Source: Eledone cirrhosa (Eukaryota). Taken from it: a DNA stretch of 64,000 bases. The notes under the pieces were generated by a model, which saw nothing but the letters and a program-made list of their open reading frames with translations, was not told the DNA's origin and did not search any database. The first letter of the stretch is position 1, and each line of letters starts with the position of its first letter. The translations under genes were made by a program, and so were the position numbers. Positions 3,235-54,035 of this stretch are shown here, piece by piece. The stretch lies in assembly GCA_964016885.1 (NCBI GenBank), contig OZ024740.1, positions 152,582,001 to 152,646,000 of the forward strand, written 5' to 3'.

Positions 3235-4210
<976 letters not shown>

Positions 4211-20110: not shown

Positions 20111-20124
20111 GAAAGAAAAATAGA

Positions 20125-28634: not shown

Positions 28635-31600
28635 GTTGATTAGACGTGTATTACTTCGGCTGCAGCCTTTTTGGATTTGTATTACGTTTTTGTGAGTTTG
28701 TGTTTCATTTGTTTTATTTGTGTGACCTAACCTCCCGCCTGGACTTGCAGACGAGTGGTTATTTTATTTTTACCCTTTTGGGGAGTAAAAACTACTTTGA
28801 AAAATTTGTATACCAACTTACAATAATGGATACCATACATGAAAACACCACAGCCACGCCCCCCAGGGAAAGTGATAAAGAGCAACAAATAACTCAACCT
28901 ACTGAAGCTTCCCTTCTCTCGCTTTCGCATGCGAGTATGGAAGTGGATTTGGCGAACAATTGTAAAAACTTGGTTAATAACCCAAACAATGGAAACAGTA
29001 AATTGAAAGAATGTATAAATTACACTGACACCAACAACACAAATAACAAAGAAAATAACACAAACACACACAAAAGCGAAAACAGCAGCAACAATGACAA
29101 AGAAAACAACATAAATGTGAACTCAAAACACGAAAAAATGGGTGAAAACCCAAAAAACTGTACCGCAAACAACAACAACCAAAACGCAAACACTCAAGAA
29201 AACAGCAACGAAACACACAAAAAAAGACCCCACTACACGAATATCCTTTACCCAGGTCGTTAAAGAGACCGAAACTTTCACCCCAGTTGACATCAGTAAT
29301 GCAGCGGAATTGCTAAAAGAGGGGAGAAAACGAGTGAGCTTTGGTGAAAACGGTGAATTCACCATAATCTCCCCTAAGGATATTAAAGAGCCACTTGAGA
29401 GAGGGAAGTTATATGGGATTCTAATAATTTTGATGAAGGACCAATTGGTGGCCCCAAAATACTCGGTGTCGCCAATTGTGTCCAAATAGTACACTTTCTT
29501 CCCCACCTACATGGGGAAGAAAACTCAAACAATAACAATTTCCGGTATACACCCAAATAAAATATGTGGTGGATACTAGGAGGGATACTGGACGACGAAG
29601 ATGAACTCCTTAATATAGGCAAAGCCACCAGGGGCCATTTTGGCAGTATAGGCATACAGCTTCTGGTTCGAATGAAACCAGAACGTATCGCAAAGATACC
29701 CCAAAGAGTGTCCCTGGAAGGCTCCCAATTTATGAACATTCTAGTTGAGGGTAGGCGGCCCGCTTGCTACCTCTGTTGAGGCAGAGGTCACCTGAGGGCT
29801 GCCTGTCCTCAACAAACTAAAAAACCTTTACTGCCAACACCTCCAAATACAACACCACCACCACCACCACAACAACAACAAATACAACAAGTCAAGAAGA
29901 AAAAACTGAACACGGACCCACCCAAACACGGACCCACACCCAAAACAACTCCACAAACAAAAACACAATCACCACCACCACCACCCCAAAAACAACAAAC
30001 ACAACAAGTCAACAAAAAACTGAACACGCCCCCCCCCCCACCTAAAACAACTCTAACAACATACATAACAAAACCCAACATATACCCCTCCCCTCCAACA
30101 TGGAAGAGGATCACTTAACGTCAAAAGACGAGGGGGGAACCCTTCCAACAAATAAAGCGAAAAAAAAAGAAAACACACCGCACCCACGTAAAGAAAATTA
30201 ACCCCTCCTCAAAACAAAACACAAAAAAATGCAGAACAAAAACCAACAAAAATTACACAGACACAGCTATACACATACTTCAACACAAAAATATAAAACT
30301 TGTAAACAAAATTGAACAAAACCCTTCGGTGCAAACCGAAGGGCCAAATTTCAGGAGGGATACAGAGTACCCCTCTTTAAAAATGATTAAAACTCCGATA
30401 GACATTTATATAGAGCTAAAAGACAATTTTCCTGAGGACGTGCCCCCCCCCCCCCCCCCTCTGTGTAAAACCAATGGACCGCGTCCTCTTGAAAAATTTC
30501 CCCACCCCCACTCAGACACCCACACTACACCAAACACCCCAACCCAACCACATTCTGATGTCCCCAGACCACCACAAACCAACACCCCCACCCAACAACT
30601 CCTCCCTCACCCCCATAGAAGTTGTGCAGCCCGGTCCCCGGGACGTAAGGAGGTAGGTGCCTTTTCTTTTTCTTCCCCTTCGCCGCCAACATGGCTGTAT
30701 TGAGGGTAGGATGTTTGAATGCGCGTGGCCTGAGCTCACCTTGGAAGCAGGCAAAACTTCTAAATGACCTCAGGTCGCGCAGTATAAATGTCATGGCTAT
30801 TTGCGAGTCCAGGGTCAGCAGCGAACGCCAGCTAGCCCCCACCTTTAACGACTTTGAGATCTATGCATCTCTCTGTCAGCCAGGAGATGGGGGTGGGGTT
30901 GTCGTTCTGCTGCAAAAACACCTGGGACTCGAAACGCAGACGGTGCACATAGACCCGGAGGGTCGACTGGAGTACTAGACGTTGGCAGTGGTGAAGGTGG
31001 AGCCTTTAGGCTGGTCGCCGCCTATGCCCCTTTTGGGGCAGCGAGGCCGGACTTCTTCCAACGTCTGGAGACTTTTCTAGGGACGTCCCACTCCTTGATT
31101 TTAGTGGGGGACTGGAATGGTATCCTATATGCACGTTGGGACTATGTAGGGGCATGTCCCAATAGAGGGCGGTGTAACAGCCTCAAACGGTTAGTCGGCC
31201 GATTTGACCTGACGGATAGATATCGACTAGATTTTCCGACTGCGCCAACCTGGACTTGAACTAACCTTAGTGGATCAACTAGATCGTAACTAGATAGGGT
31301 CCTAGTTAGAAATAAGTTGTCCAGAGATGCGCATGGTTGGCTATTCAGATCACAAATTAGTGACCTGCTTAGTCAACTTTGATAGAACGCATAGACAGGG
31401 AACCGGTTACTGGAAGCTGAACTTGTCCTTACCGGCAAGTAAAGCTTACAGGGATCGGAACGATTGACGGGGGCTATCGTCAGCAGCATGTGGTGGGGCT
31501 CTCTCATAAGAGAGATTAGAGTAGTCTCGATAGTTTTTAGTAAGGAATTAGGCTCAGATAGGAATAGGAAGGAAAGGGAGTTGGTAGATAGAGTAGAAGA

Positions 31601-34240
31601 GGCGATTAGAAGCGGCAACGTAGCCAGAGTGCTAGCGTCGAGAACGGCCTTAGACCAGTTTTTCGACGCGAAGCACGAAGTCTGCGTTGTCAGAAGCAAA
31701 ATACGTGCTCTAGGAAACGAGGGGGCCAAAGCTGTTAGCTGGGCCCGCGTGACAGAAGCCAAAAGTGGGATTAAATTCACTATTCGGTCTTTGAAGGACC
31801 AGGATGGACGGGTGATCCTTGAACCTGGACAGATGTGTGAGGCCTTTCAAAGGCACTTTGCACGACTATTCGGGAGGGGCGGTGGGCCGGATGGGGATGT
31901 GGATTTCAGTCCATACCTCGACGGCCTACCGCATCTTTCGAACGAGGAGGCGAAGTCTTGCGAAAGGCCGATTTCGGCTGCTGAAATAGGGGACGTGCTG
32001 AGCCAATGCGGCAAACGCAATCCCCGGCCCCCGATGGTCTTCCATACGAACTTTATGTAGCGATGCCGGACTTTTTCTCCGATCTCCTCGAGGCGGTCTA
32101 CTGCAACTGGCAACAGAACGGGAGAATTCCCTGTTCTGTGACCAAGGGTGTAGTCTCGCTAGTGAGGAAGGACGAGAACAAGGGGGATGAAATAAATCAT
32201 TTCAGGCCCATAATTCTGCTAGATGCGGAGTTAAAGATTTTGGCCAAGGTGTTAGCAAAGAGGTTGGCGCTTGTCGTGGGCAACCTGGTGGGAGATGCGC
32301 AGACATGCACTTTCCCGTCCAGGTCCATTCACGACAATATCCACCTCATGCGTTACATCATAGAGAGGGTAGGGAATTAACCCGACTTTGGTGGGGCCCT
32401 GATCAACTTGGATCAATCTAAGGCGTTCGACAGGGTCGACCATGATTACCTGGATGCGGTGCTAGCGGCTGCAGGTTTCGGTCCCGTTTTCAGGAGATAA
32501 ATTACTGCCATGCACAGCAGCCGCATCTGCTCGAGGGTCAAGGTGAACGGCTACCTCGCGGAACCGTTCCAAATCGCGCGGTCCATCTGACAGGCGTGCC
32601 CTCTCTCCTCCCATCTGTATGTGCTGGCTCTCAAGCCACTGCTGCGGAAGTTGGAGTTGTTGCAGGGCATCCCCTTCGAACCGGGATTGCGGAAAGCGGT
32701 GTCGGCCTACGCCGATGACGTGACAGTAATGGTGTCGAGTACCTCGGAAATCGGGGCGATCGGTACCTTACTGGAGGAATACGAAAGGTTTACAGGGGCG
32801 AAGCTGAACTGAGACAAGTCCGTCGGTTTGCAACTCGGCGCGTGGAGGGGCAAACCGATGCCCTCCGACGGTGAAGCTGCTCGGGGTTTGGTTCGGACCA
32901 GACCTCCAGGTGGAGAAGAACTGGGGTGAGGTAACGAACAGGGTGTTTTCACTGGCCCAGAAGTGGGCCGAGTGCAAACTATCCCTGAAAGGTCGGGCGG
33001 AGGTGACGAACGCTTTTATAGCGTCCGTCATCTATTACCGCTTGACAGTTGTGCCTTGCCCAGGTGAAACGCTCACCAAATGGAGCGCGCACTCTTCCAA
33101 TTCCTTTGGAAGAAACGGGCTCCTTTGGTGAGGAGATCCATCTGCTGTCAACGCCCTTCGAAAGGAGGGCTGGGGATGCCGTGGCTGCTGACGCGTAAAT
33201 ACGCATTAAGGCTACGGCACCTCCAGGTATTCCTCACCGGTCGACCGGTGTGGGTCCCGTTTGTGAGGCGAGCCTTTCCGAGACTCGTCTCGCTTACCGA
33301 GATGCAATCTTGGGTCAAGAAAAGACCGAGAAAACTTGACGCCTGGCACACGGAGTGTGCTCAGGCGCTCACGGCTCTCTGGCAGGCGGATTCAGCTATC
33401 AGTGGAGACTCCACCTCGACATTCTATAGAGGAGAAGCCCTAGGCATGGAGGAGGAAGAACTGGCCAGCCTGTTCGATAGGACATTTGGCCCGGGACCGA
33501 TGGACAACTTCCAGAGGTCCCTGGCCTTGCAGTGCTACCGTGGGGCTCTCTACAGACACGGGCGCCCGGGTAGGACCCTTCGAAAAAGATCTGTCCGAGA
33601 TGCGTGCGCGACGAGGAAACCGTCGCGCACGCATTGGTACACTGCCCGGGCGTTGCCGACCTGTGGGGCTATGTGGAACGACTGCTGTCACGGGTGGGAC
33701 CAATCCGGTTGACCACCGAGTCTATTGTTACGATCAAACCGCCTCGCCCCTTCAAAAACGAAGGAGAGGCGGTCTTCCTCCGTGTAATAGCCATGGTGAA
33801 AGAGGTTATATGGTGGACACGTTTGAAAGGACTAAGGTCGGAACACCTTTCTCTCCGGTCAACAACTGGTCCTTTTCTTCCAATATCATTTCGGAAGAAG
33901 GATCAGGATGGAGAGAGAGGTGCTCCACCCCAGCCAGTTTTATGAAAGATGGGTGAAAGTGGCGAGAATGGCCCGTATGAATGGGCCTTCTCTCTACATC
34001 AGCCTGTAGGTGGAAAGAATAGAAGAAGGGAGCACCCTCTCTTTGTGCTCACGCGGAGAAGGGTTGCACATTTTTTCGGGGGGAGGGGCGACCCCCAAAA
34101 CGCCCCCTCCCTATTGAGGACTTGTTTTATTTTGTTTGTTATATTTTTGTACTCGTTTTATTGTATGTAAACTCCCCACCCCCACCCCCTTTGTATTTGT
34201 CAAAATCTTTTATGCCCTGGTGGCAAATAAATAGAAAGTT
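28635..34240 (+). mobile_element. Tx1-like LINE copy D (full length, decayed)
   Basis: Begins right after (TATC)n 28604-28634; ORF1 from ATG 28826 (VEGRRPACYLC*GRGHLRAAC); ORF2 30691-34009; AATAAA at about 34226, then (TATC)n. Confidence 0.93.
30691..34009 (+). pseudogene. ORF2 (APE + RT) of copy D, frameshifted
   Basis: MAVLRVGCLNARGL; FRPIILLD; AYADD; VKLLGVWFG; C-terminal zinc-binding ET..HALVHCP. Confidence 0.9.
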
Positions 34241-34281
34241 ATGTATCTATCTATCTATCTATCTCTATATATATATATTTA

Positions 34282-34342
<61 letters not shown>

Positions 34343-34386
34343 AAATAAAGATCCGGAGGCATGGTATACATTTCCAATCATTTTAA

Positions 34387-34460
34387 TCACGACACATGTT
34401 TCAATAAGAGATAGATCGATCGCGTAGCCATGATCGATTATCACTGATCTCGTCAGGTGA
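34387..34460 (-). ncRNA. type I hammerhead ribozyme
   Basis: tcac-CTGACGA-gat..gata atcgatc atggctacgc gatcgat ctatc..att-GAAA-catgtg-TC-gtga. Confidence 0.78.
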
Positions 34461-34639
34461 AAATGAATTGTCTTCAAATCCTTGATATGAGGGAGAAAAT
34501 TAACGGTGTACACTCACAGAGTTTAGTCCCTCATATGAAGATCAAGCAGTCAAAACACGGCGACTGCTATCGTCCTCAGTTAGGGTCATAAAACTATCAA
34601 GTCTTTATCTCCCAATAGCTGTAAAAGACGCTGGACATC

Positions 34640-34860
34640 AATCAAATCTGTAGAATTACAGTCGGTCACAGTTAATGTGAGTGGGTACACACACACTCAC
34701 ACACACACGACGCGAGGTCAAAGAAAAAAATATATATACATATACCAACATAGCATCAAATCTGTAGAGCTATAGACGGTCACAATTAGTGTGAGTGAGT
34801 ACACAAACACTCACACACACCGACACGAGGTTTAAAAAAAATATAAATATACCAACATAG
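34640..34860. repeat. two-copy tandem repeat of about 110 bp
   Basis: atcaaatctgtaga...ggtcaca...ataccaacatag occurs twice. Confidence 0.75.
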
Positions 34861-34994
34861 TATTCACCGAAAGTTAGTTTACAAAACAACAAATGTTATA
34901 TTGGTCAAATCTCAATTTGACGATATAAATTGGAAAAATTGGGTCAACCGCAACCCTATTTTTCCAATTTTTCAAATTTACATCGTCAAATTGA

Positions 34995-37252
34995 GATTCC
35001 TCGAAGCACTCTACTGCAACAGGCAGCAGAATGGGAGTATTCCCAGTTCTGTGAGTTGGGGAGTGGTGACGCTGATAAGGAAAGACGAGAACAAGAGGGA
35101 TACATTAGACAACTTCAGACCCATAACTCTGCTCAACAAAGAGTTTAAGATTTTGGCCAAGGTGTTAGCAAAGAGATTGGCGTTGTCGTCGAGGATTTGG
35201 TTGGGAAGGCGCAAACTTGTGCAATCCCAGCCAGGTCATACACGACAATCTCCACCTCATGCGGTACATCATAGAGAGGGTAGGTTGTAAACCTGGCTTC
35301 GGTGGGGCGCTGATCAATTTAGATCAATCGAAAGCATTCGATAGGGTCGCCCAACGATATCTAGAGTTTGTCCTCAAAGCAGCTGGCTTCGGCCCTGTCT
35401 TCAGAAGCTGGATCGCTGCAATGCACGCTCGATGGTCAAGGTTAATGGACCCCTCTCAGAACCATTTCGGCTCTCCCGATCGGTCCGTCAAGGGTGCCCT
35501 CTCTCTTCCCTTCTGTACGTATTGACTCTCGATCCTTTACTGCGGAAGCTGGAGCTGTTGCAGGGCATCCCGCTCGAACCGGGACGTGGAAAGCCGGTGT
35601 CGGCTTATGTGGACGACATCACCGTGATGGTGTCGGACACCTCAGAAATCGAGGTGGTCGGCACCTTATTGAAGGAATATGAAAGGTTGACAGGAGCCAA
35701 ACTTAACCCTGAAAAGTCGGTGGGCTTGCAGCTCGGAACCTGGAGAGGCAAGCCTATGCCGTCCAACAGCGTCGTGGGGTGCTGGACGGACGGATCGGTA
35801 AAGTTGCTCGGGGTTTGGTTCGGACCAGACCTCCAGGTGGAAAAGAATTGGGACGAGTTAACAAGCAGGGTAGTCAGTCTCCCCCAAAAATGGGCTAGCA
35901 GGAAACTATCACTCAAAAATCGCACCGAGGTGGCGAATGCGTACATCGCGTCCGTCATCTACTACCGGATGACCGTCGTGCCTTGCTCCCGTCCGCGCCT
36001 CGTCAAGTTGGAACGGCTCCTCTTCAAATTCTTGTGGAAAGAACAAGTTCCGTTCGTGAGGCGGTCCATCTGCTGCCAGCACCCTCTACGCGGAGGGCTG
36101 AGCATGCCGTGGCTAATGATGCGCAGACATGCACTGAGGTTGTGACATGTAAAGATATTCTGCCTAAACGGTGAACAAGTGTGGTCGCCGTTTATCAGAC
36201 GGGCCGTTACGCAGCTCGTTTATTTGACTGAGCTGCAGACCTTGGTCAAGAAGAGACCGAGACTGGGTGACTGGCACCTGGAATGTTGCTAGGCATTCAC
36301 TGCCTTTACCAAGCGGGCAATGCGATCAGTGGAGCTTCCACTCTCGAGTTCTACAGAGGAATAATGGTGGGCAAGTGCGATGACGCACTCGGAGAACTTT
36401 GGGCCTCGTCGAAGTGAAACTGACTAATCTGTACCGGAGGACTTTCGAGCCGGGGACGATGGACAATTTCCAGAAATCCCTCACTTGGCAGTGCTACCGG
36501 GGGGGCACTGCCGGTTCGGGATAAACTCTACAGGCACGGAAGTGCTGTCAAACGGACCTGCCCAAGATGCGCACAGAGCGACGAAACCGTTCTGCACGCA
36601 CTTGTCCAATGTCCGTGCATTACTGACTTGTGGAGCTATGTCGAACAGCTACTGTCGCGTATGGAACGGATCCGACTATCGGCCGAGTCCATAGTGAAGA
36701 TCCACCCGCAGCCTTCCTTTGGTCAGGAAGAGCAGGCAATTTTCCTGCCTGGTGGCCGTTGCGAAAGAGGTTATATGGTGGACCAGATTGAAAGGACTGA
36801 AGACAGACACTTTTCTCTTCAGCCAATCCCTCATCAACTTCTTCAAGTTTCACCTGGAAAGGAAGATGAGAGTGTGGAGAGAGAAGTGCTCCCCCCCCCC
36901 CTCCAGTACATTTGCTAAAAGGTGGATGAATGTGGCGAGAATGGTCCGTGTGAATGGGCTTATCTCATCATGCCCCTATAGGCTAGCTAACTTGAGGAGA
37001 GGGGTGCTCTCCCTGGGTACCCTAGAAGCGCAGGGTGGTTCAGGATTGGTGGGTACCTGAGTTACCTCTGGGTCGTCCACCCCCTATAGGGGAATATATT
37101 TTGTTATATTTATGCATAGTTTATTTGATATTTTTTATATCTTCATTGTTAAATTAGTCTTGCCATTGTGCACTTTTACTCGACCTTATTGTAAACCCCC
37201 ACTGTCGCTGTCTTTGTATTGTCCCCTACATGTTGGCCCTTGTGGCCAATAA
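34995..37252 (+). mobile_element. Tx1-like LINE copy E (5'-truncated, divergent subfamily)
   Basis: FRPITLLNKEFKILAK, LDQSKAFDRV, VRQGCPLS, AYVDD; 3' UTR ends gtggccaataa. Confidence 0.9.
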
Positions 37253-39720: not shown

Positions 39721-40094
39721 ATATTCTATTAGCTATTATCCCAAAGTTCATCACGATATTCTACCTAATCAGGTTTACAGTAGATATTAAGCTTTCAATT
39801 TCGTCAACGAGAAGGAAACGGAAATGGGAATGTGCGGTCGTGAAGTTTCCATGGAGTTTGTTGCGAGGTGTTTGATGTTTAAATTAAAAGTTTATTGAAT
39901 ACGAAGTAGCTTTCCTTAAGGGCTTCGACAGTTATAACGATTTTTAAGCTAAAGTTGAAAAGCGATATTTGTGGTAAAGGTGATTTAAAATCATTTTGTT
40001 CAGAAATTCATGCAGGTATTAAAACGATACAGCTACAGTTATTAATCTTAATAAAAACCATTAGAATTTATACATTTGTGTCAATAAGATATAT

Positions 40095-40990
40095 GTTTAT
40101 CTATTCTAACATAGAATTGTGATATTCTGGCGGCGATAAAATTTTTGCAGCTGTTTCATTGAGAGAGTTTGTCGAAAAGTTTGAAAAAGTAGAAGTTGCT
40201 AGGTGAAAAATCCGGAGAGTATGCTGGAGGAGACAGAGTTTTGTGGCCCATTTCATTTTACTTTTGGAGCGTTGGTTATGCGATGTGTGGTCGAGCGTTT
40301 TCGTGCAAGAGAACTGGTCTTTTCTATTAACGAATGCTGGACACAATCACTGCATTTTTTTATGCATTTCACCGATTTTGTGACAATATCTCCCCTATAA
40401 CTGTTTAGGCAGGATTCAAAAAGCTATATTGTAATAATCCGGCTGCGGACCAGCCAAGAGTCATCATAACATTCATTTAGTACAACTTCATCGTTGGAAT
40501 GTGTTTACGAGCTTCATCGCCGGCCAACCAGTGTGATGAATGTCGTCGGTTGTTGTATACGTCGAAATGTGACCAAAAATCAATCGTATTAGCTGCGCAA
40601 AAGAAGCGAAGAACAAACACCAAAAAGGTGATTGTTCTGGTTTTCGTTCAATTCGTGTGGCATCCATTTTTCAAGCTTCTTTCACTTTTCAATTTGGTGC
40701 AAATGTTCAGAAAAATATGCTTACATCTAGGTCTTCTGTAAGCTTACGAATAGATTTCTTTCCATCAATGCCTTCTATACATCGTCGTCAATTAAAGAAG
40801 GACGTCTTCGACCTTCATTATCTTCACGAGTAAATTCACCATGCCGTAATTTTTAAAACTAAATTTGCACTCTGTATTCACTAATAATTCCTTTGCTCCA
40901 AACTTCATTGGTATTTCTAGCAATCTGTGCTGCACTGCGGCCGACTAGAAATAAATTTTTTTGGAAATCCTATTTTGAAATCTAAACTTC
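40095..40990 (-). mobile_element. mariner transposase remnant
   Basis: Minus strand fragments EGRRRPSLIDDD, KKLEKWMPHELNENQ (WVPHEL motif), VLLHENARPH and PAYSPDFSP (YSPDLAP motif); stops and deletions. Confidence 0.85.
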
Positions 40991-41859
40991 AGAAATCTGA
41001 CAATTGACACAAATGCAATTTATATTAAAATTGGATTAAATGAAAATAGGACAGCATAAGATAAGATTATAAATTAAACATCATTTTACATACCTTTCAT
41101 AAGATTTTATTCTTTATAATATGTTGAAACAAATAAGAAATATTACACCTGTATTTTGAACAATATAATGCAAAGCATCGTAGCAAGTAAATCATATATA
41201 GGCACATGGTTGAATACGAGTTAGATACCTTGTTAAGTGTAATTAATAACATGCGAAGAAACATGGTGATATTAAGTGGCATTTTTATGACCTCTTGCTT
41301 ATAATTATTTTTAAATTAAAAATTAAATACGATATATTTTTAGTTAAGGTAATTTAAGCAAGTATAAAAATATATTTTTACATGGCTGAACACGAGATAT
41401 CCTGTTGCTTATAATTATCTTTAAATGAAAGTTGAATACGAAATCATTTTTTTAAGGTAATTTCATACAAAGTATCTTAGCGAGTAGAAACGTTGAATAT
41501 GAGATATCCTGTTTAGTGGGATTAAGGATATTAAGTTAAAAACAAGGTAAAGTCAGGGAACACCTTTCGGAAGTCTTTAGGTTTTCATCTATGGTAAGAT
41601 ATTTCCTGCAACAATTAATATCACAGAATAAGACTTCAATTGTAATTCGATTATCTTGATTATTCAGCTAACAATCCATACCACAGTGAAGGCGTAAAGT
41701 GTTCCGGATTGCAAGACAGCTTGCTATTGGAATTAGGGGGCTCATAGTTTGGGAAATGTGTGTTCGAAATTATAGTGAAGCACATGCCTGGATGGAGCCG
41801 AGAAGAAAGGCATGGAAATGGTAGTACGAAATATAGCTGAACGAAGAAAATAAATGGGT

Positions 41860-42560
41860 CAGTGAGATCCTAAACTATGATCGACGCACAAGATCTATAG
41901 TGAGATTTAAGCAGATTAACGAAGATGACTTCAAATGCAGCAGACGTGCAGGTTAAGTAAGCACTGAAAGTACACGTGAAATAGAGCCCTTCAATTTCCA
42001 GGGAGGGTCCCAGGATTTGTTGACATATTTTCTTGACTACGTGAACTATTCAACAGGGAGTGTGGAGGATGCTCAGAAACTATAGTTTCCAGAATAAAAA
42101 TGGAATGGAAGACGTTTTGGGAGCTAGTGTCTCTGCTGACAACAAAGCTCTTCTCTCGACAAGAAGAGTGGATGTATGATGCTCGTTTGTGAACTGCAAT
42201 TCTACATGGCAGTAAATCCTGGGCATTGGTTGCAGAAGACAGGCAAAGGCTATAAAGAAATTAGACGGGTATGCTGCGGAGGATGTGTAATGTTAGTATG
42301 TATGTACGACATAACCAAAGTGAGCTGAGAGTAAAGCTGTGTATAAAACGATTCGGATGTAATATACAAAGACAAGACTACGATGTGTTTGTGATGAGTA
42401 TGAAAATAAATAGAGAAATCTCAGCGGATGGGATTCATAGAAGCGGTAAGTTTAGGACGACTTATGATGACGTAGAAGACCGATTGTAGCAAGCTTAATC
42501 TCACGACAGAAATGATAATGGACCGCAAGGATTTCTGACATGCAGTTCTGGAGAAGGCTC
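41860..42560 (+). mobile_element. RTE-like LINE 3' remnant
   Basis: MLRRMCNVS...ELRVKL resembles the post-RT region of RTE elements; heavily decayed. Confidence 0.5.
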
Positions 42561-42750
42561 GCATACCATCGCTCCGCCATCGTTATTTGCACCCTCAGTA
42601 TACAATCTACCTATATCTTATCCATGATCATCCCACCCTTTGAATCTTAACTCGCATGTCAGTTGTTTTCAACATCACAATACCTCCAATCTATATGAAA
42701 TCACCTACCCTTCCCTCTAATCATACCTGTGAAACTTCACGACCCATTTG

Positions 42751-42866
<116 letters not shown>

Positions 42867-43785
42867 ACTCACACACGGCCTCTCTCTCGGCCAGGCCAGA
42901 AAATACATCCCATCAACAGGAGTTTGGTGAATACATTTTAAATAACACTATTGCATAGACAACATAACCTTATTACCTAAGATGCTGCCCGATGATGCTG
43001 CGTAAGTGGTTGCATGATCACAGCTTCCCGTAGCCACGAATGCCATTGAAATATCTAACACAGCTGGTTATGAATAAAGGAACTATGAATATTTACATAT
43101 GACGTTCGTAATTATCATTATTTTATATATATATATACTACTTCCCAGATCAACAGCATAATACTAGCAAGGAGAAAAACACAAGACACAAATCTATCAT
43201 ATATTTGTCACATCATTTCTCTCTCAACATGAAAACCAATTTCCTATACCTTTCCAGGTAAAACACTCAATTCGTATTAAGTTTTTAAATCTGCTCCTTT
43301 AAATCTTCTAACTTTCAATCATATTAATATTGTTACAACCCTTTCTTAATTACATTCATATAACAAGTCACCCTCTTAATATTAACTTACTTCCTTTCAT
43401 AATTAACTTTATTTTCTTTCTCTAAAGTTCTCTTCCCCTTATTTACTAGAACTCTTTTGTTCTCAACCGGAAGCTCCTATCTATAGTCATTGGAAAGCGT
43501 GTCCTATTAATTATGATTCTTTGTACTCTTTATAGTGAAAATTGATTATGTACATCACCGCACTAACACTCACACATACACCCCCCACACCCACACACCC
43601 ACATATATATGTGTGTGTGTATGTGTGTGTGTGTGTGTGTGCATGTATATACTCAAGCTCTTTTAAGTATATATGTATATATGTGTAAGTGTATCAGCGT
43701 GCCTGCAAGCCTATTCACTAGAACAGATAAAACACTATCTCTCTACACACACACATGCATACGCGCACACACACACACATACTTA

Positions 43786-43821
<36 letters not shown>

Positions 43822-45304
43822 CATACATAAATGCGAAAGCATATGTAATTTTCAATGTTATACAGAGAACTGATCCGGTAGAGAGTTTATTCAACAATAT
43901 ATATAAACGCATTGAAAGTGTATAAATTCCTTTATTGCTGTATATATTTCCTTGCTGTTAATGGTTTAGTATCCATAACGTACAAATACTTTTTTACCTT
44001 CTAAAACATGCTATGTACAGTTTTATCCGTTTATATACGCAAATTTATTGCATGCTACTTTCATAAGAGTATATGCATATTCATCGAAGATGACTCTTTG
44101 TTCAGGGACAGTGAATTAAAATTTGCAGTATGCTCTACGATAATATTCCAGTCAAAGCATTTTATTTTCATTCATGAAATTACCTTAGCTGTGATGATCA
44201 GGTCTTCTTAGTAGGTTTAACTCGTTCGTTTTGATACTATCATCTGCCTACTACGTACCATAAGTGGGTATCCATTCACTTAAGATTATTCAGCCCCTTT
44301 CATATTCAACCTTTTTCATATTCTTCTGCGGTTTTCTTATATTTACTCTGGACACCAATCACAGTAATTTAAGAAAGCTTTCAGTGTTCATGAGCACTTC
44401 TTTCTGCTCTCCTGTTTAGCGCATACATATAGACACAATTTAAGAATGTTGCATAGATTAACAATGGTGGCTATCAAACAAATCTGTCTGGATTTATATA
44501 ATTTGCTATTACCTACTATCTGCTTTCTGGCAAGAAATATGATTTCTTTTTAAATACAGCCATGTTTTCATATTTAAATCTTAACGAAACATTGTTGCAG
44601 ATTTACAGTTATCATCTGTAGAGAATGAATTATTATGCTGTGTTTTTTTTTCGAAGATTAGTTCGGCTATACTTTGATCGAGACAGAATAGTAGCTGGAT
44701 AATCCTCTTACCTCATATGAGTGGAACTGTGTCGAAGAAGGTTGAGGAATATAAACGAAACGTGAATATAACAGGTATTGCGTATGTGTGTGAATTTTTA
44801 ATGACTAAAATGTCTCTTCCATGATTTAATTGGAGTAGAATTTAAGGTTTGGGATTCAAGATCCTAAGGTTGTGGCTTTGATTGGTGAGCCAGGCGGCAC
44901 AGCATGTTTTTGTGTGAGATCGTTCCTTTCAATTTTTTTTCTTTTTCGTTAGAGGATTAGGAACGCTATCATTAAAACAGCTGAAGCGCCTCCTATGGGA
45001 TAATTTCTTCTGTCGCAACGAACAGCTCTCAAATCAAGACAAAAATACTATATAGATAGTTGTCTTACTCCTCTGATAATAGATCAAAAAAACAAAAATA
45101 TGTTTTGACCTCTGCAGTCAATCGGGAAATATGTTATGGTTATTATTGTTGGTGTATAGTTATTCATAACTAGAGATCTTGTGGATAGCTAGAACAGCCT
45201 TTTATTTTATTTAGATGACATATATGGTAGATTAAGTTGCTATTTCTAGAGGGTCAACAGAAAATGTACATGTTCTCTTTGTATCTTTGTATGCATGTAT
45301 GTAT

Positions 45305-45481
45305 GCTCAAGCCGTTTTCGATGGCTATTTCTGGACGGCTATTCAGTCCAGAAATAGCCGTCGAGACGGCTTGAGCTCTGCCGTCGGGGTTGAACATTTT
45401 CCTACTACCCACTCTATTACCCTAAGTATTGAGTACTCTGGTGCGTAATGGTCCACCTGGTTCCTTACCACACTTCCTTCG

Positions 45482-45483
<2 letters not shown>
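45305..45483 (+). mobile_element. 5'-truncated pLTR-like unit with the 3' half of an HHR and a fold-back end
   Basis: gtccagaaatagccgtc-GAGA-cggc ttgagctct gccg-TC-gggg; 45305-45335 is the reverse complement of 45345-45376; homologous to 58040-58205. Confidence 0.6.
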
Positions 45484-45541
<58 letters not shown>

Positions 45542-45600
45542 CAAGGCTCTGATACCATCAACACCATAAACACAGAGCTGGCATATATAAGAACTGACTA

Positions 45601-45656
45601 ACTGCCTGATGAGGTCATAGCCATTCAATGGCTATCATCGAAATATATATAGAAGT
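45601..45656 (+). ncRNA. type I minimal hammerhead ribozyme
   Basis: actgc-CTGATGA-ggtcatagccat tca atggctatcatc-GAAA-tatata-TA-gaagt; same family as 4037-4093. Confidence 0.8.
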
Positions 45657-45666
45657 AAATAAAGGA

Positions 45667-45990
45667 TTATGAGTCCCACCATACCATGAATAGGTTAGCT
45701 ATGTCGCCTGCAATGCTAACACCAATGGCTGCACCCTCCTCTTGGGCATATGTTTTTCCATTAAATTTGAACATATGTTCCTTAAGGGTTAATTTTATAC
45801 TGGCCCCCACCGCATGTGCAATCATTTTCTTTAGTTCATCGTGGTTTTCGGGGGTCCGTATGGCTCTGGTCCACCCATTCCATCTATCTGTGTGGGTTTT
45901 CTTGGCCATTGAGGTAATGGTAGGTGGTCTGTCTCTTGCTGGTCTTGTAGGGCACAGGTTGCTAAGGTCATATGTATCTAGATAATCATT
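45667..45990 (-). pseudogene. PLE reverse transcriptase fragment (motif B' region)
   Basis: Open frame KKMIAHAVGASIKLTLKEHMFKFNGKTYAQEEGAAIGVSIAGDIANLFMVWWD, matching the PLE F.FNG..Y.Q..G.A.G...AN..M pattern. Confidence 0.8.
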
Positions 45991-47117
45991 ACTATAGGTA
46001 AGTTTAAGTAGAAAACATGAATGGAATAGCAACATCATAACTTACAATTAAGGACAAAATGAAAACACACATAGAACAAACAACCAACCAGTGACATGTA
46101 AATAAGCAAATAAATAAACAAATATAAACACACACAGACACCCGGATGTAACACATGCGCAAAGTAAGCACACAACACACACAAAAACAAGATGGCGTAG
46201 GACAGAACAAAGGAGAGGCACAAAAACAAAAGAAAAGAATCCCCAGTCATTGAAGAGGTCACAGAATATATGACGAAAGAACTTTGACAATATATGAACA
46301 ACCGTCCGGTTGTGGAACCAACCAACCAACCGGAAATTTATAAATTCTTAAATTTATAAATTTAATTTATAATAAATTGGAGTGAAAGCACTGGTGCGTG
46401 TGTTTCTTATTGGCAACATGACCCTCCCAAAGCATAACAATATCGGTTTCAACACACGTTTTCAGATAAAGAATCTTGCTAAACAAATTCAGAAACGAAA
46501 CTCTCTATATATAATATATATATTGAGAAACCCACAGATACATGCGGACACACACATATACATGAATATATCCACATCCATCCTTGAGTTAATGGTGCCA
46601 ACCTTAACCGATGTTGCTCTATGAATAACTGGGACAAACCAATCCGAATGGATTAGACTGAAATGTTTCTTCTCTCTTCATAATGTACTTTTAGTTCTGA
46701 TACTGGTTCAGTCTAATCCATTCGGATTGGTTTGTCCCAGTTATTCATAGAGCAACATCGGTTAAGGTTGGCACCATTAACTCAAGGATGGATGTGGATG
46801 TATTCATGTATATGTGTGTGTCCGCATGTATCTGTGGGTTTCTCAATATATTGTTCATAACTCCCTCTGGTCGAGTAATCTTTGAAGTGTAGTGACTGCT
46901 AGAAAGCTGCCATTACTCATACTTCTCGCCTCCTTAACCACCTCTTCTACGGATTCGATATAAATACCCCCTCCGCCTCCGTGGTATTGTTTTCGGGGTT
47001 ATAAGGGGCTTAGCTCTGTTTCTTGACCGTTGTATCACGTGACTGTCTCCCCCTCCGCCTTTTGGGATTCTTTCTCACGTCATATAGACGCGTTCTTGAG
47101 GCTAGTAAAACGAGGTA

Positions 47118-47207
47118 TCCTCTTGATAAGTTGGCAGACCTCGCAAAGGCTCTATATCTATATGATGTATTGTTTTTGTTTATGCCACGAAACTACGTAG
47201 TCGAGGA
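47118..47207 (+). ncRNA. type I hammerhead ribozyme, U3-A8 variant (unit 1)
   Basis: tcctc-TTGATAA-gttggcagac...gtttatgccac-GAAA-ctacgtag-TC-gagga. Confidence 0.78.
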
Positions 47208-47711
47208 ATCTATAAGCAGTTTAGGTATGATACATCTTATTACTAATTATATCTAAATGTTTCTTCTCTCTTCATAATGTACTTTTAGCTCTGATACTGG
47301 TTCAGTCTAATCCATTCGGATTGGTTTGTCCCAGTTATTCATAGAGCAACATCGGTTAAGGTTGGCACCATTAACTCAAGGATGGATGTGGATATATTCA
47401 TGTATATATGTGTGTCCGCATGTATCTGTGGGTTTCTCAATATATTGTTCATAACTCCCGCTGGTCGAGTAATCTTTGAAGTGTAGTGACTGCTGGAAAG
47501 CTGCCATTACTCATACTTCTCGCCTCCTTAACCACCTCTTCTACGGCTTCGATATAAATACCCCCTCCGCCTCCGTGGTATTTTTTTCGGGGTTATAAGG
47601 GGATTAGCTCTGTTTCTTGACCGTTTTATCACGTGACTGTCTCCCCCTCCGCCTTTTGGGATTCTTTCTCACGTCATATAGACGCGTTCTTGAGGCTAGT
47701 AAAACGAGGTA

Positions 47712-47801
47712 TCCTCTTGATAAGTTGGCAGACCTCGCAAAGGCTCTATATCTATATGATGTATTGTTTTTGTTTATGCCACGAAACTACGTAGTCGAGG
47801 A
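47712..47801 (+). ncRNA. type I hammerhead ribozyme, U3-A8 variant (unit 2)
   Basis: Same sequence as 47118-47207, offset by 594 bp. Confidence 0.78.
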
Positions 47802-47839
47802 ATCTAGAAGCAGTTTAGGTATGATAGATCTTATTACTA

Positions 47840-47908
<69 letters not shown>

Positions 47909-48193
47909 AAAAAAGGAAAAGAATGACTTCACTTGTAGTTATAAATTAATTTAATTTTATATTATAATTTTATAATTTGGTTTTGTATATCTAGGGGAGA
48001 TTTTTAAAGATTCCTCGTTAACTTTCCTGGAAAACTTTCTCCCGTTCTTCGGTGGCGATTGTCAAACTGAGATCAGGTTGTCGTGTGATGTGTGACTCTA
48101 TATATAAGAGATTTTGGTGTGTCTGGAAGGGGGGGGGGCTAATTTGTGTGGGAGTGGAGTGTTGATGAAGATTTAAAGGAATTAAAGCATATA

Positions 48194-48254
<61 letters not shown>

Positions 48255-48286
48255 TAAAATCAAAAGATGGTTAAAAGAGTTCCATG

Positions 48287-48357
48287 TATTTTATTATGCG
48301 CATTTCAAAAACAAATATCATCATGCAATAACATTTGTGTTTTCATCAGATAAAATA
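48287..48357 (-). ncRNA. hammerhead ribozyme (inverted copy)
   Basis: Reverse complement of 48421-48491. Confidence 0.85.
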
Positions 48358-48420
48358 GGAAGACATGATATGAAGGTTAAAAAACACTTGTGGATAGTGC
48401 AGTTTTAAATCAACATTTCC

Positions 48421-48491
48421 TATTTTATCTGATGAAAACACAAATGTTATTGCATGATGATATTTGTTTTTGAAATGCGCATAATAAAATA
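48421..48491 (+). ncRNA. type I hammerhead ribozyme
   Basis: tattttat-CTGATGA-aaacacaaatgttatt gcat gatgatatttgttttt-GAAA-tgcgca-TA-ataaaata; 8-bp stem I, palindromic stem III. Confidence 0.9.
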
Positions 48492-48614
48492 CATGGAACT
48501 CTTTTAACCATCTTTTGATCTTATATATTATGTATACTCCAGTCCTACAAACTATTGAGTGCTTCTTATCCGATATCTGCATTGTTTTATTTTACTACAA
48601 TAAAACTCACCTCC

Positions 48615-48657
<43 letters not shown>

Positions 48658-48839
48658 AATAGTGAATGGTAACAACAAGATAATTGATTAGGAGTGGATG
48701 TTTAAGGAGTGTGAAAGGAGTTGTAAAAGTGCCCTCTACCTAGTTCCATTTCAAAACCAAAATGTAAAACCATAATATTATAAAATTAAAATAAATTGTT
48801 TAGAACTACAAATGAAATCATTCTTTTCCTCTTTTTAAA

Positions 48840-49028
48840 TAATTGTTTCTACTTTAGGCACAAGGCCAGCAATTACCCAGTGCATTACTGGTACTTAATA
48901 TTATCGACCTCGTAAGGATGAAAGGCAAAGTCAACCTCGGCGGGATTTGAACTCAGATCGTAAAGGGACGTAACTATGCTGGAAAGCATGGCGTCCGACC
49001 CTCAACCGATACTGCCAATCGACCGCCC
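48840..49028 (-). mobile_element. tRNA-derived SINE (full length)
   Basis: Reverse complement of the family at 37265-37446. Confidence 0.82.
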
Positions 49029-49076
49029 TTTTTAAATAATATACCTAACTGTATCAAGGATTTCATACATTTTCAA

Positions 49077-49243
<167 letters not shown>

Positions 49244-49352
49244 ATTGTTATAATTTGGGAGAATCATGCTGCCAATAAAGAAACACACGCACCCCATCGT
49301 TTTCACTTCAATTAATTACAAATTTCCGGTTGGTTGGTTTAATAACCGGATG

Positions 49353-49620
49353 TCTTAAGTCTAAAGTCTGTCTTGGCCAGTGCATATCCCGGGTCCATGA
49401 CGTGAAGTAACTGAAAGTACAAGACTCCCCCTGGACAGGGAGCCAGTCCATCGCAGGGTTAAACCCTCAGCTATTGCTAGTATTCATTTCCATCTGAGTA
49501 TACTGGAGTAACGTGAAATGAAGTGTTTTGCTCAAGAACACAACACGCAACTGAGGAATCGAACCGACCACATTATGGCCGTACGTCCAACACCTTTACC
49601 ACTAGGCCACGTGCCTCCAC
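49353..49620 (-). mobile_element. tRNA-derived CORE-like SINE with 12-bp target site duplication
   Basis: aataaccggatg at 49341-49352 and 49621-49632; minus strand gtggcctagtggtaaagg (A box) and ggttcgattcc (B box). Confidence 0.85.
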
Positions 49621-50064
49621 AATAACCGGATGATTGTTTATTTATTGTCAAAGCTCTTTCATCACACATTCTGTGACCCCCACAGCGACTAATTTGTTAT
49701 TTTATGTCTATCCTTTGTTCTGTCCTACACCAGCTTGTTTTCGTGTGTTGTGTGATGTGTTCTTGGTTAGAGCATGCATTATATCCGAGTGTGTGTGTTT
49801 ATTTATTTATTCATACGTTTATTTTCTTGTCACTAGTTGGTTCCTTGTTCTATCTATGTGTGTTTTGTTTAGTTTATTAGTTTGGTTCTTGTGTGTATAT
49901 ATATGTCTTAAAAACATACAAAGACACACAAGAACCAAACTAATTAAGGACAAGATAAAGATGGCCTGCCTAAACTCTCGGTGGCTGATGCGGAGTACTG
50001 CGAAAAGTCAATAACAGCAGTCGCTATGCAGGAAGCCCTACTCGGCCATGCGAGACACAAATGA

Positions 50065-50200
50065 TAATAGCTTTGTCTTTCATCCTTGCGGGGTTGATAA
50101 AATAAAGCACCAATATTGTACTGGGGTCGATTTAATCGAATTTCCCCTCCCCCAAATTGCTGGCCTTATGCCAAATGTAGAAACAATTATTATTATTATT
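50065..50200 (+). mobile_element. SINE 3' part
   Basis: ctttcatccttgcggggttgataaaataaagcacc...tggccttatgccaaatgtagaaaca plus (ATT)n. Confidence 0.7.
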
Positions 50201-50226
50201 AGCAGCAGCAGTAGTAGCAGCACTAC

Positions 50227-50287
<61 letters not shown>

Positions 50288-50480
50288 TGCAGCTTATCAC
50301 ACGGCGCTCGTATTTAAATTAAAATATTGTTTTCTTTTTCAATCAATTATTTTGTTAGTTATGATTTATCTGTATTTTTTTTTTTCGTTTTTTTATTCAT
50401 CATCATCATCATCATCATCATTACCATCATCACCACCATCGTCATCATTATTATTATTATAATCATCATCATCATCACCA
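50201..50480. repeat. (AGT)n and (ATC)n trinucleotide repeats
   Basis: Direct reading. Confidence 0.9.
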
Positions 50481-50983
50481 ACAATGGCGGCAACTACTTG
50501 CTACCTAGTGAATCGAACGTAGAAGGCGTGTTTTTGAAAACGTTTTCTTTTATTTCTCGTTTTATTTTGTGTGTGATATAATGCGTTGTATTGCCTACTT
50601 GTTGAAGTATGTTTAGTCTGCGAGAAAGCTTGGTAACTTTCATGTTTAATGGAAGAGCTAGTGACATAACATTTAAAAACTCCCATATTTGCATCTGAAG
50701 TGGTAAAATATTACAACATTCATCTGAAGTACGTTCTACAAATTATGACATTGTAATATGTTGGGTAATTCTTGGCGAGTGTTTAAGTTTTATGGTTTGT
50801 ATAATATATCATTAATGTTAATTTTGCATGGGATATTATATATATATCATGTTCTTTTTATTCTAATTTGGTAATATATTTCTCTAGTACCATATAATAT
50901 ACATTAATATGATCTATATTATACCATATATATAGATACGAAATTCCAATACATATCTGTATACAACTATGCCTGAAGCTAAG

Positions 50984-51017
<34 letters not shown>

Positions 51018-51260
51018 ATCCATATTGTATTATATATGAATATATATATATTGATCCTATTGTATTATATATGAATATATATATATATATATAAACAAGC
51101 AAATTATAAATGTAAACATGTAAGTATGTTTTTGAAACGGTGCGCGAGTTTGAAAATTAGAAATTAGAAATTATAAGCTTTCACCGTATTTTAGACTAAA
51201 GAAATTTCTAGCCTGATAGTGGGGTTTATAACCCTCGGAGAAATGGAAAAAGATGAGTGT

Positions 51261-51330
51261 TGCCGTACATGGGAGTCGAACCCACATCTTTAGTTATTCA
51301 GACCACTGTGCTACCATTACACCAATACAC
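51261..51330 (-). pseudogene. tRNA-like sequence (tRNA-Gln(CTG)-like pseudogene or SINE head)
   Basis: Minus strand tggtgtaatggtagcac (D arm, A box), gtCTGaa loop, gtggg ttcgact cccat (T arm); acceptor and anticodon stems imperfect. Confidence 0.55.
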
Positions 51331-51780
51331 ATTAATACTAAAATATAAGTATTAATAAAATAGATGTTCTTTTGATCAATTACATTTTATAATACATATT
51401 TCGGATGTACAACAATACGTCCTCATCAGACAAAATATGTATCATTATATTTTGTCTGATGAGGACGTACTGTTGTATATATGTTGTAATATGGATCATA
51501 ATATAAGTATTAATAAAATAGATGTTCTTTTGATCAATTACATTTTATTATACATATTTCGGATGTACAACAGTACGTCCTCATCAGACAAAATATAATG
51601 ATACATATTTTGTCTGATGAGGACGTATTGTTGTACATCCGAAATATGTTTAATAAAATGTAATTGATCAAAAGAACATCTATTTTATTAATACTTATAT
51701 TTTAGTATTAATAACTCCAGAAAATTATTTTTTTCGTTGAGTGCTTCCAATCTACTGTAAAACTCATTCTTTGACATAAT
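51331..51780. mobile_element. array of alternating-orientation HHR units
   Basis: attttgt-CTGATGA-ggacgta(t/c)tgttgtacatcc-GAAA-tatgta-TA-ataaaat on minus at 51384-51436 and 51542-51594, on plus at 51607-51659, and partial on plus at about 51449-51480. Confidence 0.82.
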
Positions 51781-51804
51781 CATTGAATATTGTTTAACAC
51801 TTTA

Positions 51805-52030
<226 letters not shown>

Positions 52031-52120
52031 TACATGACTAGAAATGTTTCATTCGAAAGAAATCGTAAGGAAACTCCTGATGATTTCATACGCAAGATTC
52101 AGTTCTAGTCATGTAGAAGT
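52031..52120. other. two degenerate head-to-head HHR copies of the 26847/57864 family
   Basis: tacatgactagaa / ttctagtcatgta inverted arms; plus-strand CTGATGA and minus-strand gaatGAAAcat. Confidence 0.55.
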
Positions 52121-52339
52121 TATATAAAATAAAGATGCCTATATTCTACTAACGTAGTGACTACTTTTTTTAACTGTGATCACCTCCACTACCCATCAAG
52201 AATCCACCCGGGATCATATATATATACGTGTGTGTGTGTGTGTGTGTGTGTGCGTGTATGTGTGTGTACTACAACTCAGCTCTAAGCACCAGCGGCTTCT
52301 CCCAGAGAATCTCTTACTCTCCAGATCGCCGTCTGTATC

Positions 52340-52720
52340 TAGCAAGAAATAATCTAGGTATAAAGCCTAAACGTGCTCAACGATAAAACTAATGTCGGTA
52401 GAAAGTTCTTAGGACGTTTAGATTCACACTTCCCTGTAAGCCATAAATACCAGCAAACTTTTAACCGTCACACAGTGAAAATAGGCTATTCATGTGGTAT
52501 AAACATGAAATCTTACATAAGCAACAAGCGCAAAAGCCTTCTACCTTCGTGATGCTCATTCAGAAGTCCAAAGGCATGCCCGTTCGTCCAACAGTGCAGA
52601 AGTGACCTCCTCCAACCAGAACCACCTAACAGAAGCCTGTGTGTATGTAGGAAAAAGCCGTTTCCTGAATGACGAAACTACATTCAGATATCAAACAACG
52701 TGTGGAACCTCAGAGAAAAC
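52340..52720 (+). pseudogene. Naiad-like PLE linker remnant
   Basis: IKTNVGRKFLGRLDSHFPVSHKYQQTFNRHTVKIGYSC, homologous to 55910-56030. Confidence 0.72.
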
Positions 52721-53979
52721 GACACAGAAAACGACACAGTTATGAAAAATGAAATTTAATTTAATTTATGAAAAATGAAATTTAACAGAAAAGTGAAATT
52801 TACTCTCACAACTATCTTCTTAAGAACACTGGCTAAATACATTTTGGATTTTTTAAATCGATGTCCCTACGAAGAGAAATTCGTTATGAAGCAATGTTCT
52901 AGGCCAGACCAATGTTGTTTCCTCTTTGAACATGAGTTATCCCATTTTCTCTTGTTAGAATTACCTTCCTGACATATGTAAGGTTTACCTTAATTTTATT
53001 TATTTAACTAATTGGTATGTTCAGGATTTCCTGTCCTTAAAAATTTCCTGTTGTATCAAGAATCTCCCAGGAGGTACACCATTACAATATGGCAGACTGA
53101 ATGAGTTCGGATAACAACTCAACGAAGCTTCTTCCGGCCAACATACTTCTGGAAATTGGTTTCTGTCCATTGAGGAATTTTGCTCGACGCTATCATTGAC
53201 GCCATTTGGCTATTTCAACAGCTATTCTTGCGTTGATTTTTCTCATTTTTTTCATTATTCTGTGAATTCTAATATACTTGCGCTCCATCTCGGGGCAACA
53301 TTGTTTATATTATATATATATTATATTATATATAGAGAGAGAAAGAGGGGGGGTATAAATATATATAAAGGCAAAGAGGAAGTTAGAGAGCTCAATAAAA
53401 GCCATTGACATCTATAGATTTTTCATTTTTGCTTGTGTGTTCTTGTGTGTATGATTTTACCATGTACATGTGTTTAGATATCTATTGATGTGTTTAGACA
53501 TGCGATATTCATACTTATGGTTTTGAATGCGTTAACAAAAACACCTAATTTCAAGTTAAAGATTAAAAACAATGCAAAGATTTCAGTAAATAGAAAATGA
53601 AAAGTATCAAAGCAAAACATTATGAAATCATCACGTGATATCAAGCCGTTGATCCAAGTTTAACTTCCAAGTTCAAATGTAATGTTAACACGTCTTGGTG
53701 GAAAAATTATATACTGAATAACATATGAATTATATTACAGTTTTTGATAATAGACTTATTGTTATTAATAATATTCTTAAATACATTTCTTCGATTCAAT
53801 ATAATCTCTATAGCACTCCTCTTTCTTTCTCTCTCTCCCATGTATATATATATATTTACACAAACGCACACACACACACACACGCACGCACGCACGCACG
53901 CGCACATATATATGTATATATATATATATACACAAGTATATATATGTATAAGTATATATATATATACGTATATATAGGA

Positions 53980-54035
<56 letters not shown>

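Follow-up and report, generated by a model that had tools for sequence, protein, structure and literature searches.

Insertion structures of a hammerhead-bearing retrozyme family in Eledone cirrhosa suggest copying of a single unit-length RNA by a borrowed PLE protein

How does a repeat without a reading frame of its own come to lie in a genome as ordered tandem and inverted copies? This question is raised by positions 46518-47845 of a stretch of 64,000 nt from Eledone cirrhosa (assembly GCA_964016885.1, contig OZ024740.1, positions 152,582,001 to 152,646,000), which is referred to here as the window. The window is AT-rich, with many microsatellites and LINE fragments, and belongs to a genome of 3.0 Gb. 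An initial inspection (the sequence-only reading) had described two near-identical units with a 594-nt period, an upstream inverted partial copy, a hammerhead fold with a palindromic stem III in each unit and a TATA-like word. From these features it had proposed a candidate retrozyme that is copied in trans by the RT of a PLE.

At a lag of 594 nt, the tandem blocks 46661-47251 and 47255-47845 differ at 11 of 591 positions (98.1% identity), and the 145-nt inverted copy is 99.3% identical to each of them. Both elements of the sequence-only reading were therefore borne out. Unit positions are counted from q1 = 47203, the first base past the predicted cut. In this numbering the insertion runs from an inverted q243-99 through q53-594, q1-594 and q1-49 into (TA)n (Table 1). 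The array comprises two periods, yet only a single complete cut-to-cut monomer. The end of its inverted arm is normal (+243), while its 3' end is odd (+49) and the sole such end among 130 classified loci. No ORF of 120 aa is present within 46518-47845, and neither protein coding capacity nor an LTR-type structure was seen in the repeat family (PBS and PPT lying outside the scan). The 594-nt monomer is predicted to fold more stably than shuffled sequences (z -4.6 linear, -4.2 circular). The period ceiling of Tandem Repeats Finder (500) lies below the 594-nt unit. Both copies of the TATA-like word are present as described, but no more than 16 of 63 matched copies of the family retain the word, and a reading as TATA-box promoter was dropped for this reason.

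Table 1. Positions of the repeat, its predicted hammerheads and the neighbouring PLE fragment in the window.
Feature	Position	Strand	Remark
Inverted arm, q99-243	46518..46662	-	Outer end = distal initiation site (+244 class), adjoins short TA-rich tract
First unit, 5'-truncated, q53-594	46661..47202	+	Head-to-head with inverted arm, overlap 2-4 nt
Complete cut-to-cut monomer, 594 nt	47203..47796	+	Internal initiation sites q79 (47281) and q244 (47446)
3' overhang, q1-49	47797..47845	+	Atypical end, 30 nt short of usual +79 site
(TA)n target tract at 3' end	47842..47905		Target-site duplication not readable
TATA-like word	46957..46966, second copy 47551-47560	+	Not conserved across family
Predicted hammerhead 1	47112..47207	+	Predicted cut after C47202
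Hammerhead 1, helix I	47118-22/47203-07	+	Predicted pairing
Hammerhead 1, core TTGATAA (U3-A8)	47123-29	+	Motif
Hammerhead 1, helix II with inner hairpin	47130-47188; pairing 47130-36/47183-88, one bulge	+	Predicted
Hammerhead 1, GAAA	47189-92	+	Motif
Hammerhead 1, palindrome, helix III	47192-47201	+	Predicted
Hammerhead 1, possible 5-bp pseudoknot	47112-16/47138-42	+	Conserved, without covariation
Predicted hammerhead 2, same as hammerhead 1	47706..47801	+	Predicted cut after C47796
Neighbour, separate from repeat: two-armed fragment of abundant autonomous PLE	45670..46500		On same TA tract as repeat
Neighbour, RT piece	45670-46014	-	PLE fragment
Neighbour, PLE 3' end	46004-46500	+	PLE fragment

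Each unit contains a predicted type I hammerhead fold with a U3-A8 core pair and a palindromic helix III of 10 nt. As a prediction, the fold proposed earlier holds at both cut positions, and the two hammerheads are identical (zero mismatches at lag 594 from 47033 to 47212). A bulged helix II encloses an inner hairpin of 37 nt. The 5' leader may pair with the helix II bulge over five conserved base pairs and form a pseudoknot. An Rfam scan of 40000-54000 returned no hammerhead family at E<=5, and the minimum-energy fold of the monomer is not the hammerhead, which lies 4 kcal/mol above it. Hence, the hammerhead call is based on motif, covariation and precedent. In local context a pseudoknot-free model predicts a pairing probability of about zero for helices I and III, and -12.9 kcal/mol is predicted for a duplex of the palindrome. 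Given this weak monomer fold and the stable palindrome duplex, cleavage, if any, is likely dimeric or protein-assisted.

In an alignment of 52 hammerhead copies from two families that are 75% identical, 97.5% of the cells are paired and 7 of 34 pairs show two-sided changes, counts which are inflated by the kinship of the copies and were obtained with an extraction pattern that demanded the core. Compensatory changes occur in all three helices across two subfamilies: C-G to U-A in helix I, U-A to C-G in helix II, and A-U (32) or G-C (17) in the palindrome. The U3-A8 pair is found in 52/52 copies, partly forced by the selection pattern, and covariation is weaker in a 16-row alignment. We take these changes as support, with no probability value attached, for selection on the hammerhead structure. 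The UUGAUAA core, described in the sequence-only reading as non-canonical, is indeed present but not novel. U3-A8 is a published PLE-associated variant, described for Schistosoma PLEs (PMC4209133) and reported to be active in vitro (PMC3088659). PLE-associated hammerheads, including the U3-A8 variant of Schistosoma Cercyon, have in common with the Eledone hammerhead the U3-A8 covariation, G10.1-C11.1, the helix II bulge, the palindromic helix III and the predicted cleavage as a dimer. The Eledone hammerhead differs in its longer palindrome (10 nt), the possible 5-bp pseudoknot and a helix II insert of ~45 nt with a covarying inner hairpin. It also occurs mostly in tandem and not singly.

The genome contains 7,156 exact matches to an 18-nt core pattern and two matches to the reversed control, so the motif does not occur by chance. 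A second hammerhead pattern gave 7,792 exact matches (control 0). The first 100 listed of the 7,156 matches fall into 52 loci, and extrapolation from this ratio gives a family of roughly 3,700 insertions. All 52 position-ordered loci were retrieved, and the sole bias of this set is toward copies with an intact core. At least two same-strand motifs ~590 nt apart are found in 21 of them; thus, the tandem copies that the sequence-only reading had suggested searching for are widespread. The unit length across the family is ~591-594 nt, and the longest arms have ~4.8 units plus ~3 inverted units (locus L215). A sister family, 75% identical, yielded 2,045 first-look candidates and has a matching layout. 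At L185:2473-6327 a whole two-armed insertion is present twice, 2,554 nt apart, probably by later segmental duplication; the second copy was excluded from the counts. At L027:1422-2338 both arms join exactly at the predicted cut site and form a perfect palindrome.

The family shows signs of retrotransposition, namely 5' truncation, inverted arms and fixed 3' ends at (TA)n. (TA)n is adjoined by 76 of 80 3' ends and by 19 of 24 free 5' ends. The termini of the arms fall at two fixed positions, +79 and +244, and 5' junctions are imprecise. Among the two-armed insertions of the position-ordered set, 25 of 28 combine +79 with +244 and three have one non-canonical end; none is homotypic. One-armed insertions use the two sites at a ratio of 11:11, with two other ends. 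For 78 loci picked by similarity, the combination is present in 31 of 41 two-armed insertions, one other end in ten, and again no homotypic pair. Wherever both ends are canonical, one of each site is observed (56/56). With an independent choice of sites about half of the insertions should be homotypic, and 25/25 heterotypic cases correspond to p about 6e-8. The abundant resident PLE, whose own two ends are 60 nt apart, has one of each in 10/10 complete cases; seven cases with one undefined end stand beside these, and nine rows cut by locus edges were excluded, one of which reads homotypic at the edge. The Eledone family combines partial tandems and inverted arms with a tail on one side that results from two initiation sites. 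A 'tail' delimited by two internal start sites is described as a PLE signature; such sites were reported for an anole PLE, for which cleavage of both strands and a dimer prediction have also been published (PMC11167929). A tail at a single end only has been noted for PLEs (PMC8557442). This anatomy, i.e. the ends, the inverted arms and the (TA)n target, supports the earlier suggestion of copying in trans by a PLE RT.

The template can be deduced from alleles within insertions. At diagnostic sites discordance within an insertion is 69/1,976 (3.5%) between tandem copies and 44/1,749 (2.5%) between inverted copies, as opposed to 54,034/187,401 (28.8%) between loci; the similarity-picked set gave a similar result. 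Seventeen insertions have at least three overlapping copies. There, rare alleles occur 20 times in all copies, 29 times in a single copy and once in a subset. Of the 20 all-copy alleles 17 are present in both arms, and seven come from one locus of a rare subfamily. In 12 of 33 multi-copy insertions, alleles that occur at no other sampled locus are fixed in every copy. Locus L215, for instance, has four insertion-private alleles in 7-8 copies that span both arms. Exceptions with alleles in a subset of units are L200 (one site) and L081 (sites 12, 101 and 102). Variants that seemed specific to single units, at q154-155 and in terminal segments, proved to be alignment artefacts and were discarded. 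Junctions across the cut site are free of indels in 99 of 99 matched cases, although the search pattern would miss larger disruptions. A pile-up of 5' ends at the cut, as expected from cleaved linear templates, was seen at 1 of 30 loci and at three loci among 30 hand-picked junctions, and is unconvincing. If both arms had read a heterogeneous multimer, paired alleles would be expected. The all-or-one pattern thus points to one monomeric RNA that was copied repeatedly per insertion, and a ligated circle would be its simplest form.

We therefore consider it probable that the repeat is an ORF-less non-LTR retrozyme with a predicted hammerhead, copied into (TA)n by a borrowed PLE RT/endonuclease with a single RNA of unit length as template, most likely in the form of a ligated circle. 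A transcript spanning two neighbouring hammerheads would be cleaved at each of them, probably in a dimer formed by helix III, and the monomer would be joined by a host ligase, for which RtcB is a published candidate (PMC7229834). The PLE protein, acting in trans and probably as a dimer, would cut the TA tract. Each of the two DNA ends would prime cDNA at one of the fixed internal sites, +79 at one end and +244 at the other, every polymerase could pass around the template up to ~5 times, and a head-to-head joint would finally connect the two cDNAs. More tentatively, and with somewhat less than even confidence, we propose that the insertions record a two-headed rolling-circle reverse transcription, in which both subunits of a PLE dimer circle several times on one circular ribozyme RNA. 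Priming would then start from both sides of the (TA)n break at two dedicated sites, one per subunit. If true, one mechanism would account for tandem arrangement, inversion and one-sided tails in all PLEs alike. Two reports call for caution regarding the circle. Hammerhead mutants of the anole PLE, the only one reconstituted in vitro, insert normally with uncut RNA as main substrate (PMC11167929), and eight of nine Xenopus retrozyme dimers were without cleavage in vitro (bioRxiv 10.64898/2026.07.22.740005).

The PLE could also act on another template, an uncut, terminally redundant transcript of 1.x units on which the polymerase would make repeated backward jumps guided by homology. The hammerhead would then trim or regulate the RNA, and no circle would be needed. 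We regard this as unlikely, though it deserves consideration. One haplotype per insertion and exact junctions are predicted equally by both templates, and the poor predicted folding of the monomer hammerhead agrees with jumps as well as the in vitro dispensability for PLE insertion (PMC11167929) does. However, up to ~8 precise jumps per event would be required, yet the 5' junctions of the family are imprecise. Moreover, hammerhead and palindrome are kept by compensatory changes, and other animal retrozymes were shown to accumulate as circles (PMC7229834).

It is rather improbable that DNA-level amplification produced a few homogeneous master arrays whose long linear multimer transcripts were then simply copied into the present arrays. 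Such transcripts would account for the inserts with fewer than three units, which are the majority, for the alleles common to subsets of units in L200 and L081, and for the few 5' ends at the cut site, which argue for a template that is continuous there. They do not account for the 12 of 33 multi-copy insertions with alleles private among the sampled loci yet fixed in every copy. Furthermore, the expected paired alleles, one per arm, are absent in the 17 insertions with at least three overlapping copies, and no master array was found within the sampled loci.

The layout of the copies is identical to that of truncated PLE inserts (PMC8557442), and they might simply be 5'-truncated ends (pseudo-LTRs) of an autonomous PLE. 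This is very improbable and is contradicted for the bulk of the copies. Up to four complete consecutive units occur without an intervening ORF, and truncated ends of an autonomous PLE are unable to yield such an arrangement. A PLE ORF is joined to the 5' end in 0 of the 52 position-ordered loci, with the main resident PLE protein and 89 ORFs from 30 GIY-YIG loci as queries, and no homology to the sampled PLE ends was detected. Hence, the repeat is an independent, ORF-less, non-autonomous retrozyme family. With its tandem units and dispersed copies this substantiates the candidate retrozyme of the sequence-only reading, against which that reading had itself held that copies might always be single or attached to a PLE ORF. 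A further reservation of that reading, a local duplication or an assembly artefact, is scarcely credible despite the near-identity of adjacent units, since it is contradicted by thousands of dispersed copies of the same period, by the 11 differences in 591 positions and by family variants in public contigs from three runs of one sample, whose independence from the assembly is uncertain.

A candidate source of the RT/endonuclease is the abundant resident PLE. It encodes a 1,240-aa protein with RT and C-terminal GIY-YIG, is represented by 12,967 candidates and targets (TA)n. The nearest named relative of this protein, among 138 homologs, is an Octopus vulgaris protein (68%); a Pfam match was not obtained for the ORF. 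Its RT motifs resemble those of the Hydra clade, yet a CX4CxxC linker and CCHH-like residues, which are said to be absent from Hydra PLEs, seem to be kept. A 65%-identical relative is also present in the genome. We take several PLE families of this genome to be Neptune-like, a clade label based on their motifs and on PMC8557442. Copies of the nearly intact family, with ORFs up to ~1,240 aa and 4.1 kb per unit, are located at L093:3107-7623 and, as a fragment, beside the repeat in the window (45670-46500). The terminal repeat of the resident PLE carries a minimal hammerhead.

Beyond simple repeats, no homology was found between the unit and the main PLE (blastn) or the GIY-YIG and RT loci (blastn and an nhmmer profile), in a search that covered 30 GIY-YIG loci, 29 main-PLE loci and one second-PLE locus and thus part of the PLE diversity. 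Direct joints of repeat and PLE without TA spacer (L103, L104 and L110) were rejected as evidence for a partner, as they may reflect a template switch or a nested insertion with target deletion. Since such joints are absent from the 52 position-ordered loci, they were not counted. The joint at L103:4653-7163 has three parts, an inverted repeat arm, q6-143 and a second PLE family that runs to its own 3' end and has an internal microhomology deletion. A two-armed end fragment of this second family lies at 3240-3736 of the window, with a hammerhead-like motif near 3489-3520.

With metazoan non-LTR retrozymes (PMC7229834; bioRxiv 10.64898/2026.07.22.740005) the family shares ORF-less tandem units with one type I hammerhead each, a low GC content, arrays that range from dimers up to multimers, copy numbers in the thousands and the presence of PLEs alongside; a circular template and a PLE driver were proposed there as well. 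The unit of ~590 nt exceeds the 170-400 nt of the invertebrates studied in 2020 (PMC7229834) but lies inside the range of 51-972 bp of the 2026 survey (bioRxiv 10.64898/2026.07.22.740005). In contrast to these retrozymes with their canonical hammerheads, the Eledone hammerhead is of PLE type (U3-A8, long helix II), and the insertions target (TA)n strictly, have inverted arms and end at two fixed sites. Kinship to a resident PLE pseudo-LTR was reported for 24 of 57 Xenopus retrozyme families (bioRxiv 10.64898/2026.07.22.740005), whereas no kinship to terminal repeats of the sampled PLEs was found for the Eledone family.

Endonuclease-positive PLEs (PMC8557442, PMC11167929) have in common with the family 5' truncation, partial tandems, a head-to-head inverted arm, a tail at one end and, downstream of the hammerhead, a pair of internal initiation sites. 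(TA)n is likewise the target of Hydra, Naiad and Neptune PLEs. Differences are the missing ORF, the arrays of many whole units and the tail, which measures 165 nt against 30-40 nt in such PLEs and 60 nt in the resident PLE. MRC1 and other non-autonomous Chlamys elements likewise depend on PLEs, have pseudo-LTRs and form head-to-tail insertions of multiple copies, but they occur in algae, usually have 3' sequence in common with an autonomous family and mostly lack canonical hammerheads (PMC8557442). An assignment to autonomous endonuclease-positive PLEs was rejected, as no ORF with RT plus GIY-YIG lies between pseudo-LTRs. The same applies to plant LTR retrozymes (type III hammerhead in LTRs, 4-bp target duplication), given the type I hammerhead, head-to-tail units and (TA)n flanks found here. 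The family is a non-LTR retrozyme by its tandem hammerheads, lack of an ORF, dispersal and apparently selected fold, and appears to work in a PLE-like manner without a PLE ORF.

Retrozymes, their PLE origin or link, U3-A8 and dual initiation are already published, and proposals that retrozymes and PLEs are copied from circular RNA date back to 2014 (PMC4209133, PMC7229834). The family type itself is ordinary; its value lies in unusually clear mechanistic signatures and in testability. The origin of tandem and inverted PLE insertions is named an open question in PMC8557442. This young and very abundant family provides two countable signatures, one haplotype across both arms and a strict one-each use of start sites. 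With an RNA of 0.6 kb and with PLE ORFs that are almost intact in this genome, circle versus jumps and the dimer model can be tested directly. Neither a cephalopod retrozyme nor a count of the one-each or one-haplotype rules was found in the literature covered, a scope outside which Repbase/Dfam, subscription journals and supplements may catalogue the family.

Decayed LINE fragments with RVT_1, zf-RVT and endonuclease/exonuclease/phosphatase matches occupy 14000-24000 and 30000-37000 of the window. Other small hammerhead elements with canonical cores are located at 51331-51712, 48242-48536, 58328, 4037-4102 and 45601-45666. Among them are a tandem/inverted unit of 158 nt that contains three motifs, one inverted pair, and a family whose helix III is a TA palindrome; these are likely further retrozyme or PLE-end families. 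Finally, L101:971-2897 contains five tandem units of 310 nt, each with a canonical hammerhead core, and an inverted arm. These units are 99.5-100% identical and represent a second, very young retrozyme family.
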